Of a stretch of 64,000 bases of DNA, positions 1 through 62,711 are shown piece by piece. The notes below the pieces were generated by a model, which saw only the letters and a program-made list of their open reading frames with translations, searched no databases and had not been told where the DNA came from. The stretch is from Candidatus Bathyarchaeota archaeon (GTDB taxonomy: Archaea; Thermoproteota; Bathyarchaeia; Bathyarchaeales; Bathycorpusculaceae): assembly GCA_963770935.1 (NCBI GenBank), contig CAVYRJ010000009.1, positions 96,001 through 160,000 of the forward strand. Direction: 5' to 3'. Numbering within the stretch: position 1 is the first letter of the stretch; the number at the start of each line of letters is the position of its first letter. The position numbers were made by a program, and so were the translations under genes.

Positions 1-433
1 TAGCCATCGAGTACGCTATGGCTCTTGCAGCTCCGCCTGCACCAAGCAACAAAACTTTTCTGCCCTTAAGCTCCACACCGTTTTCTCGTAGAGCCTTTAG
101 CGCTCCAACTCCATCAGTATTGAACCCAAAAAGTTTGCTTTCTTTGTTCAGGACAGTGTTGACCGAATTTATTATTTGTGCAGACAAGTCAACTCTATCT
201 AGAAATTTTAGGATCGCACTCTTATGAGGCATCGTTACGTTTAGTCCGCGTATGTTTAGTGCGCGCATTCCATTTGCTGCGTTTTCAAGTTCTGCAGGTT
301 TTACTTTGAAGGCTATAAACGAGTAGTCAAGTTTAAGGGCGTTAAAAGCGGCATTATGCATAATGGGGCTTAAGGTGTGTTCTATTGGATCACCGATGAC
401 TCCACAAATCCTTGTTTTTCCAGATATATCCAT
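1..433 (-). CDS. aroE: Shikimate dehydrogenase (3' end runs out of window)
   Basis: Manual translation from ATG 433: MDISGKTRICGVIGDPIEHTLSPIMHNAAF...GLNVTMPHK...SVNTV...GFNTDGVG...LLGAGGAARA, typical AroE motifs. Confidence 0.95.
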   Translation of the reverse strand, partial: MDISGKTRICGVIGDPIEHTLSPIMHNAAFNALKLDYSFIAFKVKPAELENAANGMRALNIRGLNVTMPHKSAILKFLDRVDLSAQIINSVNTVLNKESKLFGFNTDGVGALKALRENGVELKGRKVLLLGAGGAARAIAYSMA

Positions 434-434
434 T

Positions 435-1118
435 TTATTTTATCCCCAAAAGAGTATAAGCAGATCTCATTTCTCGGATACTCATTTGCCCTGTTGCGGT
501 TTCATCGCCCGCATCTAGCGAAGCGAAAGTGAAGAAGGCTCCAAAGACCGGTGAGAGAAGCCTAGAGACTTTGCCGGGTTCACCCATGCAAAAACAAACT
601 ATCTTGGCCTTGCTCGATGCGAAAGAAACAAAGCTCAATGCGGGGAGGGTGTCTTCAACTTGTTTGGCGGTTGTAACAATCTTGCATATGCTGGCTCCAC
701 TGGCAATTTCCTCGTCAAGGATTTTCTCCATTGCTGAAACGTTGAGTGCCCCATCGAATTTGTGGTAGGAAGCGATTGGCTTAGCCCCCAGCAACTTAAG
801 TTGGCTGATTGATTCTTTATGCTTTGGGCTTAACAAATCAACATCAACGTACTCAAAACCATTTTTGGCAGCGTTTACTAGTGTTTGTTGCCGTTCAGAC
901 TCTGTTCCACCAAAGAAACCTGTTTCGCTTCGAAGTTTATTTGTTGCGATTAGGGGTGTTCTTGTACTTGCAGAAATATTTGATAGTTGGCAAGAATTTT
1001 CTAAACAGTCTAACCTAACTTCGATGAGGTCTGCTTTGGCTTTCTCGGATTTCTCAATCAGATTTAACGCTTCAAAATTGTTTTTGGGGAGAATCGAAAC
1101 ACAGATTCTCGCGGTCAC
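435..1118 (-). CDS. aroD: Type I 3-dehydroquinate dehydratase
   Basis: DLIEVRLD, YVDVD, SYH, CKIV, FCMGEPGKVSR, TGQ motifs; in aro operon. Confidence 0.93.
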   Translation of the reverse strand: MTARICVSILPKNNFEALNLIEKSEKAKADLIEVRLDCLENSCQLSNISASTRTPLIATNKLRSETGFFGGTESERQQTLVNAAKNGFEYVDVDLLSPKHKESISQLKLLGAKPIASYHKFDGALNVSAMEKILDEEIASGASICKIVTTAKQVEDTLPALSFVSFASSKAKIVCFCMGEPGKVSRLLSPVFGAFFTFASLDAGDETATGQMSIREMRSAYTLLGIK

Positions 1119-2156
1119 TTTTCGATCACCGTTTCTTCAGGCACAGATATGCCGAAGTGTCTTCCTCCCTTCGCCGCTAAATGCACAAGGACTTCATCAT
1201 TTGGTTTTAATTCAGTGACTGGTTTGGAATCTTTGGGGAGTGACTAGGCGGATGGTTTCTGCATTCTGAAGGATTGTTTTTATTTTTGTGTTGCCTGCTT
1301 GGGCTTCAATTAGAATGAGGGGGCGAAACTCGATTTTGGATCTGCCAACGTTTGTGACCCTGACGTTGCCTTCTCGGCTGACTATTAGGACTTCGTCTCC
1401 TGCTTTGAGCTCTGAAAGGTATCGCGTGCTCTGGGCAGAGGTTAAGGTGTAGTGAGATGCCGGTCCAGCGTTCACTCGGAAGGGTCTAGACTGCACATAG
1501 GGGTTTTCGTTGACTTCAGCTTCAACAAGAAAAAACCCTGCAGATTGGCATCCGACAAGCATTCCTTCGCCGGGTACCATCAAGTCGACCGTGTCCACGC
1601 AAACTCTTGCTCCTGAGCCAATCGGCTTAATGGATAAAATCTTCGCTGATGTCAACGTCATTTTCGGAGATTGAGCCTTGATGATTTTGATGGTTTTTTC
1701 CAGTTCTGTTGAGTTTCCAGTTTTAAGCAGCACTCCATCAGTTCCTAATTCAAGAGCTTCCAAAACTATCTTCGCATCCTCGGAAGTGTTGACTTCGGCG
1801 ATAAGAGCGCTTTTTCCTCTGCCTTTGGCAATTAAGTTTTCAAGGGGGATCACTCGCCAATCAAGACAGTTTATAATTACATAGTCAACTCCAAGTTCTG
1901 CAGCTTTAGCTGCTTTGTTCTCGTCTTCTTTACCCTGAATTGTAACTCGAAGAGCCGTTTTTTTGCCCTCTTTCTTTAGCTGAGCAAGCTTTTTCTCGTT
2001 TAAATCTGAAAGAAAAGTTATGAATAATTTTCCGTTGCGGTTGCTGGCTTGGTTGTTTTCGAGAATTACATCAACGTTTTCAATAGCAAGGCTAAGTAAA
2101 CCTTCCTTTTCTTGAGTGGTTGCGTTTTGCGCGATTTCTAGCCAGAGTTCTTTCAA
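1115..2156 (-). CDS. aroB': 3-dehydroquinate synthase II (archaeal), +1 frameshift in a C run near 1236
   Basis: RVCVDT, GEGMLVG, SRPFRVNAG, YLSEL, ILQNAETIRL; the shifted frame continues KDSKPVTELKPNDEVLVHLAAKGGRHFGISVPEETVIEK* and overlaps the aroD start. Confidence 0.92.
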
Positions 2157-2944
2157 CGTTTTTCACCGAGAATTCTAAGCGCTTGCTCAACCGATGCATC
2201 ATGATGGACAATGGCGGAGAGCGCTTTTGAAATTTGAGTTGGGCTGTCACATTGGAATACATTGCGTCCGATTGAAAGCCCAGCTGCGCCTGCTTTCAAA
2301 GCGTCACTTGTTGTTTGAAGCACTTCCTCTAAGGATTTGCATTTTGGTCCACCCGCGATGACTACTGGGACCGGACAGCTTTCGACAACTGTCTTGAAAG
2401 TTTCGATGGTGCCTGTGTAGTTTGTTTTGATTATGTCTGCGCCAAGTTCAGCGCCGATTCTGGCGGCATGCGCTACCATTTCGGGTGCATGTTCGTTTGG
2501 GATTTTGGGTCCACGCGGGTACATCATCGCCAATAATGGGATTCCTAAGGCATCACATTCCTCGGCGACTTTACCCAAGTTTTGGAGCATTTTATCTTCA
2601 TCTTGTGCGCCAACGTTGACGTGTACAGAGACCGCGTCTGCACCTATCCGTATGGCTTCCTGTAGGCTGCATACTTGGACTTTGGCGTTTATGTTTGGGC
2701 TAAGGTTTGACATGCCAGATAACATAACGATTAATCCTGCATCTCCAGTGTCGACTCGTTTGGCGATGCCTTTGTGTACAAGGATTGCGTCGACTCCGCC
2801 TTTAACAAGCTTGTCGGTTATAGTTTGCATGTTGGTTATGCCTTGGATAGGTCCAACGGTTACGCCATGGTCCATTGGCACGATAACTGTGCGGTTATCT
2901 TGCTGCATGATTCTTTTTAGTCTGCGATTTTTTCCTGTGTTCAT
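2153..2944 (-). CDS. aroA': 2-amino-3,7-dideoxy-D-threo-hept-6-ulosonate (ADH) synthase, DhnA-type class I aldolase
   Basis: VPMDHG, MMYPRG, ELGADIIKT, VIAGGPK, GRNVFQ; adjacent to aroB'. Confidence 0.92.
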   Translation of the reverse strand: MNTGKNRRLKRIMQQDNRTVIVPMDHGVTVGPIQGITNMQTITDKLVKGGVDAILVHKGIAKRVDTGDAGLIVMLSGMSNLSPNINAKVQVCSLQEAIRIGADAVSVHVNVGAQDEDKMLQNLGKVAEECDALGIPLLAMMYPRGPKIPNEHAPEMVAHAARIGAELGADIIKTNYTGTIETFKTVVESCPVPVVIAGGPKCKSLEEVLQTTSDALKAGAAGLSIGRNVFQCDSPTQISKALSAIVHHDASVEQALRILGEKR

Positions 2945-2952
2945 TTTTCCAC

Positions 2953-4188
2953 CTAGTGTGTTTTAAGTGAGTTTTTAATTAACTTTAACGCTTTTTCTTT
3001 ATCATTCCAATCCACAAAAAGCAAAATGCTCGATGTAATGGTTAAGATTCCAGAGATGTTTATGCCGTTGACTCTTAGGTCTTCGCTGATTTTGCCAATG
3101 ATGCCATGCGTTTCCTCTAAACCGACACCGCTGGTTTTTATGAAGACAAGATCTTTTTTGACAGCCATAGCGATTGTTTCTTTGTTGTTGGTTGTTATGT
3201 TATGGATTTGGTTGAAGAGAGCATCGATGTTTTTTTCCTGTGGCACGTAGAGAATGATTGAGTTTGTGTTCATTGACATGCCAAGCAGCATCGAGTTTTC
3301 TCTTACTTTCTCCACCATCTCTGTGATGACTTGGGGGTTGGCGGACATGCCGTTTCCTATTACAGTGACCTCAGCAACAGGGGTTGGATGAGCGATTTCA
3401 GCGTCAAGTTCAGTTGCTAATCCGCCTGTGATTATTGTACCTGCTCGACTCAAGTCTCCATAGGCATTGCTGATGACTTTTACATCGATGTCTTTGGGTT
3501 TGTATTTGAGGGCTTTGCTATGTATGAATTTCGCGCCTGAATCCGCTAAGCCAACAAGGGTGTTAACGTTGATTTCAGAAAGCCGTTTAGGTGAGGCGAT
3601 AATTTTTGGGTCACTAGACATTATGCCATCTGCATCAGTTACCAGAACAACTAGGTTTGCGTTTATCCCTTGTGCTAATATGAATGCAGTAGTATCACTT
3701 CCTCCTCTACCAAGGGTAGTAATTTTGCCGTCTTTAGTTTTGCCGAGGAACCCAGCGATGACGGGGATAGTACCTTTCTCAATAAGAGGAAGGACGCATT
3801 CTTTGATATTTTTATCGCACTCTTTGAGCATTGGGTTTGCGTTTTGGAATGAATTATCAGTTATAATTGGCCACTTATCATCCATTGGATCGAAGTAGCA
3901 TGCGTCAACACCATTATTCTTCAGTGCAGCGGCAAAAATACGCACGCTGGTTCGTTCACCCATTGAGAGAATGTCATCTAAATCATGTTTCTCCAATTTT
4001 CCGTTCGAAGTGTTCTTCGCAGTAGTCATGAGGACGTCGGTTGTTTTGCCCATAGCAGAAACTACAACAGCGATTCTTGTGCCTTTTTTAGCTTCATTAA
4101 CTACGGAAACAACTGCTTTAAGGAGCCTCTCGTGATCGGATAGGCTAGAGCCACCGAATTTAACCACAATTTTTTTGTTAGCTAACAT
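2953..4188 (-). CDS. Aspartate kinase, first gene of the aromatic amino acid operon
   Basis: VVKFGGSS, VVSAMG, GERTS, TTLGRGGSDTTA, C-terminal ACT-like domains. Confidence 0.9.
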   Translation of the reverse strand: MLANKKIVVKFGGSSLSDHERLLKAVVSVVNEAKKGTRIAVVVSAMGKTTDVLMTTAKNTSNGKLEKHDLDDILSMGERTSVRIFAAALKNNGVDACYFDPMDDKWPIITDNSFQNANPMLKECDKNIKECVLPLIEKGTIPVIAGFLGKTKDGKITTLGRGGSDTTAFILAQGINANLVVLVTDADGIMSSDPKIIASPKRLSEINVNTLVGLADSGAKFIHSKALKYKPKDIDVKVISNAYGDLSRAGTIITGGLATELDAEIAHPTPVAEVTVIGNGMSANPQVITEMVEKVRENSMLLGMSMNTNSIILYVPQEKNIDALFNQIHNITTNNKETIAMAVKKDLVFIKTSGVGLEETHGIIGKISEDLRVNGINISGILTITSSILLFVDWNDKEKALKLIKNSLKTH

Positions 4189-4207
4189 TTCAGTACACCC
4201 GTGTTTC

Positions 4208-4294
4208 GCCCAGAACCGTTCCCCAAAAATTTTTCAGTTCTGGGCTTAAGGAAAATAGTAATAATAAAAGTAGTAGTCGAAGCTAAGGAACGGT
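4208..4294 (-). promoter_or_regulatory. Candidate attenuator with alternative RNA helices
   Basis: mRNA GCCCAGAACUG (4245-4235) pairs with CGGUUCUGGGC (4218-4208); alternatively leader ACCGUUCC (4294-4287) pairs with GGAACGGU (4222-4215); the two helices share 4215-4218. Confidence 0.7.
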
Positions 4295-4332
4295 GATGCG
4301 TTGGTTTCTTTCTTGCTATTGCAATTGAGCAT
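4246..4332 (-). CDS. Phe/Tyr-rich leader peptide (28 aa) MLNCNSKKETNASPFLSFDYYFYYYYFP
   Basis: Manual translation ATG(4332)...TAA(4246); codons TAC TAC TTT TAT TAT TAC TAT TTT in a row; stop lies 57 nt upstream of the aro operon start. Confidence 0.85.
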   Translation of the reverse strand: MLNCNSKKETNASPFLSFDYYFYYYYFP

Positions 4333-4367
4333 TTTGCTTCGGACCAGTGAAAGAGTCATTGCAGAGA

Positions 4368-4384
4368 AAATATAAGCGTTTCGG
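4368..4384 (-). promoter_or_regulatory. BRE/TATA promoter of the leader-aro operon
   Basis: Minus strand CCGAAACG-CTTATATTT about 37-45 nt upstream of the leader ATG. Confidence 0.6.
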
Positions 4385-4452
4385 ATTCAGACTAAAGTTT
4401 GAACGCCGTCTATTGCTCTTAATTTAGTGTTAGTTAATATCGAAAACTAAAT

Positions 4453-5277
4453 TTAGGCAGTTATTTTTGGCGGAGGACGCACACGCCGTCTACCAAGCTT
4501 CACACGTAACGCTATGCGGTACAGTTTCCGTAGCGACTTAACTAATTGTTCAACAGTGGGCGCATTTGAGTAAATAAGTGGTATGTGTTCGTATTCAGCT
4601 ATTCGTATGGCTTCCTCATCAGGCACTGTTTTGTGGAAAACTACTATGCGTGGTTTGAGGCTACTTACACGCACAATCATCATGGGCAAACATCCAGCTT
4701 CAACGCTAGTGAAAATCAATGCCCGCTCGGTTGATGCCCCAAAAAGCTGCGTGTACTCCGAGCCTGAGTAAGCCTCAACCGCTTTTCTGCTATCGATAAC
4801 GGTATATCCGTTGACTTCTTTTACGAATTTTTCTTTGCAAGCCACCACTTCGCCCCCGATAGCCTTACACAAGTACTCCACCCTGACGGGTATGGGAAAC
4901 TCGCGGAGGTCCACAACCGCCATGCTAGGTGAACTGGTTAGTTTAGCGAATTCCCGTATGAAACGGCTGCCTTTGCCCTCGTCAATATGCAGAAGCGAAA
5001 GCACGAATCTGCGGATAAATTTGGCGCCTGGACTTTTCCTTCTGCAGCTTTCATAGTCACTAATGACTGAAGAGGATAATCCCATCGCTTCGGAGAGGCT
5101 GATTTGGGAAACAGCGAAGAGTTCACGCCACTTCTTCATAGTTGAGCCTGGTTTGCTTGAAAGAATTATTTCTCCAGCGATTCTTCTCGCTAAAACTTCC
5201 CTCAGACCAGGCGATATTGACACGAAATAATTCCTCTCTCTTGCACCTTTCCCTTCAAAGTTGAGGTATAAAACCAT
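4453..5277 (-). CDS. Archaeal HTH (XRE-like) transcriptional regulator with C-terminal domain; true start probably GTG near 5223
   Basis: IAGEIILS..PG.TMKKWRELF.VSQ..L...MGLSSSVISDYE..RRKSPG, a conserved archaeal HTH family pattern. Confidence 0.8.
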   Translation of the reverse strand: MVLYLNFEGKGARERNYFVSISPGLREVLARRIAGEIILSSKPGSTMKKWRELFAVSQISLSEAMGLSSSVISDYESCRRKSPGAKFIRRFVLSLLHIDEGKGSRFIREFAKLTSSPSMAVVDLREFPIPVRVEYLCKAIGGEVVACKEKFVKEVNGYTVIDSRKAVEAYSGSEYTQLFGASTERALIFTSVEAGCLPMMIVRVSSLKPRIVVFHKTVPDEEAIRIAEYEHIPLIYSNAPTVEQLVKSLRKLYRIALRVKLGRRRVRPPPKITA

Positions 5278-57727: not shown

Positions 57728-58339
57728 ATGGGTGTAACAATGGGTTTTCTCAAAAAATTTACAAAAAAGCTTACTGCCCCTGAGGCATCTGTCCAATTAA
57801 GGTTTGCAAGTTACTCTGTTGCTTTAGGCGAAAACCTTCAAGGTGCACTCAACGTAGCGGCAAAAGAAGACTTTGAAGCCACAGAGGTCCGCTGCGAAAT
57901 TGCCTGTGTCGAACAAGCTAAGGTTATTCGGGAAGTCTATGATGCTGCACTGAAGAGGTCAATTCCCCGAGTTGTTGATGAATCGGTTGTTATTTACTGC
58001 GCAAAGCCGACGTTCTCGGGGCCTTCACACTTTGCAAACGGCGAAAACCGCTCTATCCCAATCACCATAAACATCCCTGCTGGCGCAAGACCAACAACCG
58101 CAGGCGTAGATAGACGAGTTACATGGACAATTAAAGGTGTCGTTGCAGTAGACGGCAGACCCGATAGAACAACAGAAACAAGCGAAATCCAGGTAATAAC
58201 ACCAACTATCCTAGCTCAGGCTACAGTGCAAAAAGAAGTAATCCGCACAGTCGTTATGATTCCATGCAGATACTGCCAAGGACTCATGGATCAGATGCTA
58301 ACAGTCTGCCCCAACTGCGGCGCAAAAAGAACCGTATAA
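57728..58339 (+). CDS. Arrestin/SpoOM-like beta-sandwich protein with C-terminal zinc ribbon
   Basis: GENLQG.L.V, P.TI.IP....PT, W.IK.V..V.GRPD, CRYC...CPNC. Confidence 0.6.
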   Translation: MGVTMGFLKKFTKKLTAPEASVQLRFASYSVALGENLQGALNVAAKEDFEATEVRCEIACVEQAKVIREVYDAALKRSIPRVVDESVVIYCAKPTFSGPSHFANGENRSIPITINIPAGARPTTAGVDRRVTWTIKGVVAVDGRPDRTTETSEIQVITPTILAQATVQKEVIRTVVMIPCRYCQGLMDQMLTVCPNCGAKRTV

Positions 58340-61299: not shown

Positions 61300-62711
61300 T
61301 TATATTTTGTCAAGATTGAATTCTTCGTGTATCGCCCGGACAACTGCTACTCCGTCTTTTTCTTTGACGACGAATGAGATGTTTAGTTCTGAGCTGCCTT
61401 GTGCAATCATGCGAATGTTTATGCCTTTTTTGGCGACAGTGCTGAATATTCTTGATGCCACACCCAGCGTGCCTTTCATGTTTGCGCCCATAACAGCGAT
61501 TACTGCAACGTCGTCTTCAGCTGAGACTTCGCTGACTATTCCGCCTCGCTCCAGCAAAGCGATTTCTAGGTTGCTAATAGCTCTGCCCAAGAAGACCGCG
61601 TTTGACAATCATTGAGATATTGGCTTCCGAGGCGGCTGTGGATATCATCATAACGTTGATGTTGTTTTTGCCTAAGACGTCGAAGACTTTGGCGTAGCTT
61701 CCTGGTGCCCCAACCATTCCTGCACCGTTAACGTTGAGCATGGCAACATCCTTTATCATGGCAACTGCTTTCACTGCTTCAGTTACTTTTGCGTTGGGTT
61801 CCTTTGTTATAAGTGTACCAAGGTTTTCTGGATGGAATATGCTACGGATTCTAACAGGGATGTTTTCTTTGATGACAGGCTCTAAAGCTCGTGGATGCAT
61901 GGCTTTTGCGCCGAAAATCGCCATTTCAGCCGCTTCTTGATAGCTAAGTTGCGGCAGCATTCGGGCGGACGACCACTATCTTTGGGTCAGTGGTCATTAT
62001 GCCGTCAACGTCTGTCCAAATCCACACTTCGTCAACCTGCAGTGCCACGCCAAGGATGGTAGCAGTATAGTCGGAGCCACCGCGTCCAACAGTAGTAACT
62101 ATGCCATCTTGGTTTGCCGCGATAAATCCAGTTACAACTGGGATAACGCCTCTTTCCAGCAGTGGAGATAGCCTTTCACGGATCAGATGAGTGGTGAAGT
62201 TCATGAGCGGGTCGGCTTCGCCAAAGTTCGAGTCGGTGACTATGCCTGCTTCTTTGCCCGAGAAAAACTGCGTTTCAAATTTAAGGTCTTTTATGGCGCC
62301 CCAAACAATGGGCGCAGATAACCGTTCGCCGAAGGATACAACATAGTCTTTGGATTTAGGTGTGAGTTCGCCAACGTAGCATATGCCTGTTAAGACTTTT
62401 TCGAGCTCAGCTATGGTTTTCTCGATGATTTGGGTGACTTCTTTTTGAATTTGTTTGCTTTTGATGGCTGTTGAAAGGGTTTCGGTGTGTTTCTTTAAAA
62501 GTTCGGCCGTGAAGGTTTGGATTCGTTTTTCATCGCTTTTTTTGGCTTGGCAAGCAACTTCAATGAGACTGTTTGTGACTCCTGCCAATGCTGAAACAAC
62601 AACGGCTACCTTGTTATCTTTCTTGGCATATTTGGTAACTAAATCGGCAACATAGCGTATGTTTTCGCCTGTGCCAACGCTGGTTCCGCCGAACTTCATG
62701 ACGATTTTCAT
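61300..62711 (-). CDS. lysC: Aspartate kinase (Thr pathway), frameshifts near 61973 and 61586
   Basis: MKFGGTS, GERLS, GRGGSDYTA, two ACT domains, QGSSE; three ORF pieces join. Confidence 0.92.

Follow-up and report, generated by a model that had tools for sequence, protein, structure and literature searches.

A stretch of 64,000 nucleotides from a Candidatus Bathyarchaeota archaeon (contig CAVYRJ010000009.1, positions 96,001 to 160,000; this whole stretch is called the window) contains, ahead of a ten-gene shikimate operon, a short leader open reading frame (ORF) that ends in a run of Phe and Tyr codons and is followed directly by an RNA hairpin. We consider that this element is probably (roughly 0.7) a cis-acting sensor of the Phe and Tyr supply, in which the translated leader ORF and the hairpin control the operon. 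Ribosomes are likely to slow or stop on the run when charged tRNA-Phe or tRNA-Tyr is scarce, and the position of the ribosome would then set the expression of the operon. Judged from sequence comparison, the small ORF is a real, conserved leader that is enriched in codons for the end products of the operon. The proposed sensor is like the pheL and trpL leaders of bacteria, but the structural tests that define those leaders failed, namely the tests for alternative helices, for a terminator in the window, and for a match in Rfam. Outside bacteria, it would appear to be the first known leader peptide that senses amino acids.

The leader ORF and its conservation

All positions of the leader and the operon are given as window coordinates on the minus strand. 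The leader ORF (4332..4246) consists of 28 codons, beginning with an ATG at 4332-4330, and a TAA stop codon at 4248-4246, and encodes the peptide MLNCNSKKETNASPFLSFDYYFYYYYFP. Codons 20-27 (4275..4252) are eight consecutive Tyr or Phe codons, and this run reaches within one codon of the stop in this genome. Phe and Tyr account for 10 of the final 14 codons, with TAC, TAT, TTT, and TTC all present. An archaeal promoter (4382..4369) was recognized by its sequence, consisting of a B recognition element (BRE), CGAAAC, at 4382-4377 and the TATA box CTTATATT at 4376-4369. The BRE/TATA lies 37-50 nt upstream of the leader ATG and is conserved; the promoter sequence CGAAACGCTTATATTTT was kept in the alignment of the 23 loci of the genus with upstream sequence. 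From the usual promoter spacing, transcription would start at approximately 4345-4348. An earlier note on this DNA had described the 28-codon ORF between the BRE/TATA and the first operon gene, the run of eight Tyr/Phe codons with its mixed codon usage and aromatic-rich end, and an 11-bp stem directly after the stop (4245-4235 with 4218-4208), all of which were confirmed.

Among 5191 small intergenic ATG-initiated ORFs in the 1.98-Mb genome, this leader was the only one with a segment in which eight of eight residues were F, Y, or W, with six in the runner-up. Furthermore, this leader was the sole ORF genome-wide that joined an amino acid run and a stop-abutting hairpin upstream of a relevant gene.

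Orthologous loci were located using the aspartate kinase, the first gene of the operon, as the anchor. The leader ORF was present in 27 of 27 such loci, 24 of which were from the same genus (kinase identity 77-91%), the other three belonging to different families within its order (52-60%). In these loci, it was an ATG-initiated ORF of 24-29 codons that ended 53-86 nt before the kinase start and had 6-9 aromatic residues in its best 10-residue segment. None of three paralogous kinase loci had a leader. When 50 further loci from metagenome-assembled genomes (MAGs), at the genus level and from close relatives, were inspected, all carried the leader, giving 77 of 77. Removal of duplicates left 66 distinct leaders, 63 of which were aligned. 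In this alignment, the N-terminal half of the ORF varied freely, and the promoter, GGTTCGAAGC, AGCTTCGAC, the core of the run, both arms of the hairpin, and the GGGTG ahead of the kinase gene were conserved.

Subsequently, more distant relatives were sampled through dehydroquinate synthase II. Of 301 genomes taken from the class, 136 had this gene, and in a sample of 251 genomes from the phylum it was detected in 122 (25 of these in the class). The upstream 4.5 kb was taken for 80 of the dehydroquinate synthase II loci, and a uniform leader test was applied, requiring an ORF of 15-45 codons with at least 6 F/Y/W residues in 10 and an end located between 110 nt upstream of and 40 nt inside the gene start. 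Of 56 kinase genes, 30 had a leader by this test: 25 of 45 in the class sample, which covered other genera and families, and 5 of 11 in other classes of the phylum. Among the remaining ORFs of those loci, 2 of 267 had one, a comparison to which no formal probability is attached because related genomes are not independent. The positive leaders came from many families, and the only feature that they had in common was C-terminal aromatic richness, with no shared sequence; the family-specific peptides included SFDYYFYYYHFP, PYYYYYYYCFF, FFDFFYYYFYFE, GFFYFYYNK, and MFGYFYFYYFGP. In some leaders, Trp codons were part of the run. Weaker candidates were observed in further families, and no leader was seen in the families f26, f31, and f35. 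Conservation of an F/Y-rich upstream ORF, which had been put forward as a check on the attenuator idea, was therefore found in the near loci and in part of the distant ones.

Several features point to translation of the leader. The ATG was invariant in the 63 aligned sequences, and TAA, TAG, and TGA interchanged at the same stop site among relatives. A Shine-Dalgarno-like motif preceded the leader ATG in 18 of 31 diverse leaders, compared with a fraction of 0.20 at control positions. Furthermore, Phe and Tyr codons, including the C-ending ones, persisted where everything else had changed.

As a separate observation, one MAG labelled Methanocella sp. (leader L052, contig JBLNCY010000053.1) contained a kinase 81% identical to that of the window, with the same leader and hairpin. 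This contig was probably mis-binned or mislabelled.

The stop-abutting hairpin and other pairings

The hairpin, designated P2 (4245..4208), begins at the first base past the stop codon. Its 5' arm GCCCAGAACTG (4245-4235) pairs with the 3' arm CGGTTCTGGGC (4218-4208) through 11 pairs, including one G-U, and the 16-nt loop (4234-4219) contains A5 followed by T5 (4229-4225). P2 appeared as the centroid structure in the fold of the leader. The local hairpin had a z-score of -4.3, and none of 200 shuffled sequences was as good; the whole 191-nt leader folded no better than shuffles (z -0.06), so that only the local hairpin stood out.

The hairpin was then compared across leaders by folding the 50 nt that start at the stop codon to minimum energy, with 200 shuffles each. 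In all 33 diverse leaders, pairing began no more than 3 nt to either side of the end of the stop, with a median z of -3.75, and 20 of the 33 were beaten by no shuffle. The two weakest cases (L026 and L027) both have hairpins exceeding the 50-nt length used. In the genus set, the hairpin began at exactly +0 in 51 of 63 leaders. The arm sequences were unrelated between families, and the retention of the hairpin in spite of this amounts to covariation at the level of architecture. Within the genus, 15 one-sided changes in P2 (C to U or A to G) kept G-U pairs, which form on this strand only, against seven that were broken or gapped. In contrast, no hairpin beyond 2 standard deviations of shuffles was observed at 14 kinase loci that lacked the leader, indicating that the ORF and the hairpin form one module. 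The earlier note had overlooked this generality of the stop-abutting hairpin.

P2 is followed closely by the translation start region of the kinase gene. In the window, the Shine-Dalgarno-like GGGTG (4200..4196), which was at least 90% conserved in the 63-sequence alignment, lies 7 nt past P2 and 7 nt ahead of the kinase ATG. Across leaders, the Shine-Dalgarno sequence of the kinase gene lay 0-7 nt past the hairpin, and in two leaders (L153 and L159) both this sequence and the start were located inside the 3' arm of the hairpin. A scan for bacterial promoters and terminators came up empty, with 0 terminator-like sites in 3900-4700, as expected from the earlier remark that no classical intrinsic terminator is present.

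Two further features of leader ends were noted. In two leaders from another class of the phylum (L160 and L161), the last sense codons GGU CCC (Gly-Pro), the post-stop GGGGACC, and the 3' arm GGUCCUC were mutually complementary, so that the long hairpin could face competition from a small one that places the stop codon in its loop. Pro was the final residue in most leaders of the genus of the window.

RNAalifold analysis of the 63 sequences gave two independent helices only, P2 and a second helix designated P1, which the earlier note had also overlooked. The 5' arm of P1, GGTCCGAAGC (4345..4336), is at the predicted 5' end of the mRNA, 3 nt ahead of the leader ATG, and its 3' arm, AGCTTCGAC (4284..4276), comprises the codons Ser17-Phe18-Asp19 immediately ahead of the aromatic run. 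Both arms are near-palindromic around TTCGAA. Within the genus, 11 one-sided changes in P1 kept a wobble pair and two broke it. Among 28 diverse leaders, a P1-like pairing between the leader start region and the first run codons beat 95% of shuffles in seven, which belonged to five families; in this genome, the pairing was equalled by 11 of 200 shuffles.

An alternative helix had been proposed in which the 3' arm of P2 pairs instead with a segment inside the leader just upstream of the run. This pairing, of ACCGTTCCTT (4294-4285) with GGGGAACGGT (4224-4215), is real in this genome, with a duplex energy of -17.7 kcal/mol and 7 of 200 shuffles as good, but it was not conserved: across the genus it was no better than shuffles (median z +0.41), and only 4 of 63 leaders reached the 5% level. 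Together with the lack of any competing helix in the RNAalifold consensus, this result does not bear out the view of the element as a pair of switchable helices.

Some of the results weigh against the interpretation of the element as a sensor. Neither P1 nor P2 showed any double compensatory change within the genus (63 sequences), so the helix covariation suggested as a check was not found there; the extension of P1 did not covary either, with 1 of 6 extension positions exceeding shuffles. Within the genus, the run was conserved at the nucleotide level without an excess of changes at third positions (41, 72, and 50 non-majority bases at codon positions 1, 2, and 3, respectively), and frame +2 was also open in 85 of 93 leaders. 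Hence, openness and substitution pattern alone do not show coding. Among RNA data, nine runs contained small parts of the window; the four that were compared consist of contigs, and within 4190-4384 they gave a single 33-base piece, from one unlabelled run.

Output of the proposed sensor

In a translating ribosome, approximately 11-13 nt separate the P site from the helicase. With this distance, P2 would stay folded while a ribosome occupies most of the run, and its base would have to be unwound once the ribosome reaches the final one or two sense codons or the stop. The leader runs end one to three codons before the stop, and the stop lies in the base of P2. Simple coupling, in which a close-following ribosome leads to read-through or re-initiation, would have the wrong sign for a biosynthetic operon. 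Two models have the right sign, namely translational gating at the kinase start and conditional termination of transcription.

Under translational gating, a good supply would allow the leader to be read quickly, the ribosome would depart, and the RNA would close. In this closed state, P1, where present, would shut the start of the leader itself, P2 would re-form against the kinase start, and few ribosomes would enter the kinase gene. Under a poor supply, arrested ribosomes would cover the 3' arm of P1 and thereby let more ribosomes load on the leader, and those on the last hungry codons or on the stop would hold the base of P2 unwound, leading to initiation or re-initiation at the kinase gene. 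We tentatively rank this output first, at less than even odds, because the closeness of P2 to the Shine-Dalgarno sequence is universal, the Shine-Dalgarno sequence lies inside P2 in two lineages, P1-like helices recur, and there is a precedent in mycobacteria.

Other results argue against gating of this form. P1-like pairing was absent from 21 of the 28 diverse leaders and from most families, and in the window the Shine-Dalgarno sequence sits outside P2, by 7 nt. At the threshold used, 26 of the 56 sampled kinase loci had no leader. Folding of the leader with and without a ribosome constraint, an approach that the earlier note had recommended, gave no consistent switch. The unpaired probability of the Shine-Dalgarno sequence in 24 diverse leaders averaged 0.39 in the free RNA, 0.37 when a ribosome occupied the stop, and 0.41 when one sat on the run (unmasking increased in six and decreased in six); the corresponding values at the genus level were 0.47, 0.57, and 0.63. 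These constrained folds, with no consistent change in the genus or in the 24 diverse leaders, lend no support to a Shine-Dalgarno sequestration switch. Pairing of the run with the Shine-Dalgarno sequence, of the mycobacterial type, was likewise not supported, being no better than that of shuffled runs (median z +0.35, n=90).

The same sensor might act instead through transcription termination, which we rank second and regard as rather unlikely. A ribosome at the stop would unwind P2, the U-rich loop and the 3' arm would emerge single-stranded behind RNA polymerase, and aCPSF1/FttA or the U-tract would end transcription; a ribosome arrested on the run would leave P2 folded and the signal hidden, with no naked RNA between the ribosome, the hairpin, and the kinase start. 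This logic has the right sign and explains why the run stops short of the hairpin. A published study describes cleavage by aCPSF1 downstream of uridine-rich motifs and archaeal termination that needs no hairpin (PMC7515710), which favours this output. Consistent with it, the genome encodes an aCPSF1/FttA ortholog (TIGR03675, 909 bits, above the cut-off) whose gene shares the contig of the operon but lies outside the window (C9:43347-45230, minus strand), and a U-run of at least five lies inside P2 in 50 of 63 genus-level leaders. In other families, U5-U6 follows the hairpin directly in L110, L111, L142, L104, and L025. However, the longest U-run was U3 or less in 5 of the 63 genus-level leaders, and no U-run of at least four was present in or after the hairpin in L123, L124, L127, L131, L132, and L137, which represent several families. 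Moreover, the U-run of the genus lies opposite an A-run and might be no more than the tip of the hairpin. In the 3' flank of P2, U-runs were no longer than two in all 63 genus-level leaders. If the output were transcriptional, the element would be the first natural case of conditional aCPSF1/FttA-dependent termination governed by a leader ribosome.

A third output, on mRNA stability, appears improbable. Here the exposed U/A-rich run between P1 and P2 would be a nuclease entry site, arrested ribosomes would cover it and block 5'-to-3' decay, and P2 would be a second barrier. The run is indeed the only long unpaired stretch in the predicted free structure and is flanked by the two helices, and the logic again has the right sign. 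However, lineages that use TTC and TAC have runs that are not especially U/A-rich (e.g., L124 and L107), and the tight spacing between the hairpin and the Shine-Dalgarno sequence is left unexplained.

Least probable of all, by a little, is that the element is no sensor, the ORF encoding a functional aromatic micropeptide (a membrane peptide or the precursor of a modified peptide) or being untranslated DNA in which TTTTATTAT, which resembles a TATA box, is a second promoter element and the TTCGAA boxes of the P1 arms are a repressor site; the strong nucleotide conservation in the genus without third-position excess would fit, but peptide and DNA are unrelated between families, with only the Phe/Tyr codon content persisting, including C-rich TTC/TAC runs that are not TATA-like, the element lies directly upstream of the kinase of the aromatic operon (30/56 against 2/267), maturation genes were missing from the ORF maps of the loci examined, and the one-sided changes in P1 and P2 that keep G-U pairs are sensible only for RNA of this strand. 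The P1 motif, in addition, occurred once in the window and 31 times in the genome, close to chance expectation and mostly inside genes, which makes an operator regulon unlikely.

Known systems, the operon, and other loci

Among the closest known systems are the bacterial pheA/pheL, trpL, hisL, thrL, and leuL systems, which are ribosome-mediated transcription attenuators. The element shares with the pheL/trpL type a short leader ORF that is packed with codons for the end product and located after the promoter but ahead of the first gene in an amino acid operon, regulatory codons near the C-terminus, a stop just ahead of the arm of an RNA helix, and, presumably, ribosome arrest at hungry codons as the signal. 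Unlike that type, it has an archaeal BRE/TATA promoter, no conserved terminator/antiterminator alternative, and no hairpin with a U-tract terminator in the window; instead, it has one hairpin directly at the stop, with the Shine-Dalgarno sequence next after it. Rfam covariance models gave no leader family (Phe_leader and the like) at E values up to 10, with four chance-level matches to unrelated families.

The polycysteine leaderless small ORFs (sORFs) of mycobacteria are described as attenuators in which the tract pairs with a downstream Shine-Dalgarno sequence, the control being translational and not by termination (10.1101/834739). They resemble the present leader in having a tract of hungry codons that closes a short first ORF, a 5' untranslated region that is very short or absent, a very stable downstream structure in place of competing terminator/antiterminator helices, and a design that recurs before cognate biosynthetic operons (10.1101/834739). 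They differ in the pairing of the run with the Shine-Dalgarno sequence, which was no better than shuffles here, and in that the conserved helix here lies wholly past the stop. In layout, the mycobacterial Cys sORFs are the closest known system.

The erm/cat and tnaC leaders also resemble the element in that a ribosome arrested near the leader end alters access to RNA just downstream. The site concerned is the ribosome-binding site in erm/cat and the entry site of a termination factor beside the stop in tna, and the signal for these leaders is a drug or free tryptophan, detected by way of the nascent peptide, and not tRNA charging. In erm/cat, the Shine-Dalgarno sequence is inside the helix, whereas in the present leaders only L153 and L159 have this arrangement. 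Rho is not known from archaea; compared with tnaC, aCPSF1/FttA would be the archaeal counterpart of Rho.

The same pathway is regulated in archaea by TrpY of Methanothermobacter and Tar (TK0271) of Thermococcus, but these are described as DNA-binding proteins that act on aromatic amino acid genes at promoters (PMC6737238). According to the same study, Crenarchaeota are mostly without Tar and TrpY and may rely on "a third regulator or mechanism" (PMC6737238). When the window was searched for the Tar box TGGACA-N8-TGTCCA with up to two mismatches, the sole match was at 58124, far from the promoter and at chance level.

In open-access papers and bioRxiv, no archaeal leader-peptide attenuator was found, in agreement with the earlier view that such control is not well established in archaea. 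Leader-peptide attenuation is a textbook mechanism of bacteria. A 2021 publication names, in its abstract, promoter recruitment as the only known target of archaeal transcriptional regulation (PMC8448881). We lean towards the view that ribosome-mediated attenuation dependent on tRNA charging occurs in Archaea and extends widely through Thermoproteota, being found in Bathyarchaeia and no fewer than three further lineages at the family level, with a design of its own, namely a hungry run and a stop in the base of a single hairpin beside the next ribosome-binding site, with no terminator/antiterminator pair. A conserved and phylogenetically broad case would show that archaea, too, sense amino acids by means of the translating ribosome, and it would be a candidate for the third mechanism of aromatic amino acid control raised for Crenarchaeota (PMC6737238). 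The element is compact and portable (~140 nt), would be suitable for testing transcription-translation coupling, re-initiation, and aCPSF1/FttA action in archaea, and provides a search template (hungry run, stop codon, abutting hairpin) for other amino acids.

The operon begins with an aspartate kinase gene (4188..2953, ATG at 4188; AA_kinase and ACT domains in Pfam), followed by genes for a DeoC-family aldolase (2944..2153, PF01791), 3-dehydroquinate synthase II (aroB', 2156..1212, PF01959), type I 3-dehydroquinase (1118..435, Pfam), and shikimate dehydrogenase (433..1, Pfam), the last of which ends beyond the window start. We take the aldolase, from its context, to be aroA' (ADH synthase). 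Beyond the window edge, the same strand carries genes for a GHMP-type kinase, EPSP synthase, chorismate synthase, a class I/II aminotransferase, and prephenate dehydrogenase. The ten genes are thus those for aspartate kinase, aroA', aroB', aroD, aroE, shikimate kinase, EPSP synthase, chorismate synthase, aminotransferase, and prephenate dehydrogenase, and the Pfam assignments bore out the chorismate-pathway genes that the earlier note had placed downstream. The leader heads the whole common aromatic pathway together with genes of the Tyr branch, which fits a run of Phe and Tyr codons, with Trp added in some relatives.

Other genes around the operon were also noted. In many families (L094, L101, L102, L112, L114-L122, and others), a gene encoding ~350 aa, with no match in the reference set, lies between the kinase gene and aroA'; by its position it is likely to be aspartate-semialdehyde dehydrogenase, and it is absent from the operon in the window. 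Upstream of the leader promoter, a 274-aa ORF without a Pfam family adjoins it on the same strand (4453-5277, minus strand). At approximately 61971-62711 (minus strand) of the window, a 260-aa open frame gave a second, weak match to the amino acid kinase family, with 39% identity over residues 60-198 of the operon kinase.

Finally, the genome was inspected for other leaders. No Trp-rich leader was found ahead of its trp operon, and none of its small ORFs with His, Cys, Leu, or Thr runs was upstream of a matching gene; C7, H6, and HHQHHH runs occurred in small ORFs at C1:170455-170626 (+), C4:153103-153262 (+), and C17:60872-60965 (-), with no matching biosynthetic gene downstream according to a rough gene map. 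An Ile-rich ORF with a stop-abutting hairpin was rejected as an Ile leader since it precedes the gene of a secreted protein, not an Ile gene. At C9:82300-82400 (+), upstream of an ilvB-like gene, the first in an ilvBN-leuCDBA-pheA-like row of ORFs (names given solely from N-terminal sequence and size), the direct repeat GGGATCGTC is present in two copies; a frame there, GIVTSIAGIVGYIF, lacks an ATG, the ATG-containing frame reads MRDRHLNSWDRRVHIF, and no clear branched-chain leader was seen in this segment. On the same contig, outside the window (C9:165839-165887, plus strand), a 15-codon ORF, MSQSLTRRRHRNRPD, with five Arg in eight residues lies in a 190-nt gap between ORFs of 385 and 1028 aa. 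These flanking ORFs look like the small and large subunits of carbamoyl-phosphate synthase in size and N-terminal sequence, and the 15-codon ORF may be an Arg-sensing leader or a chance occurrence.

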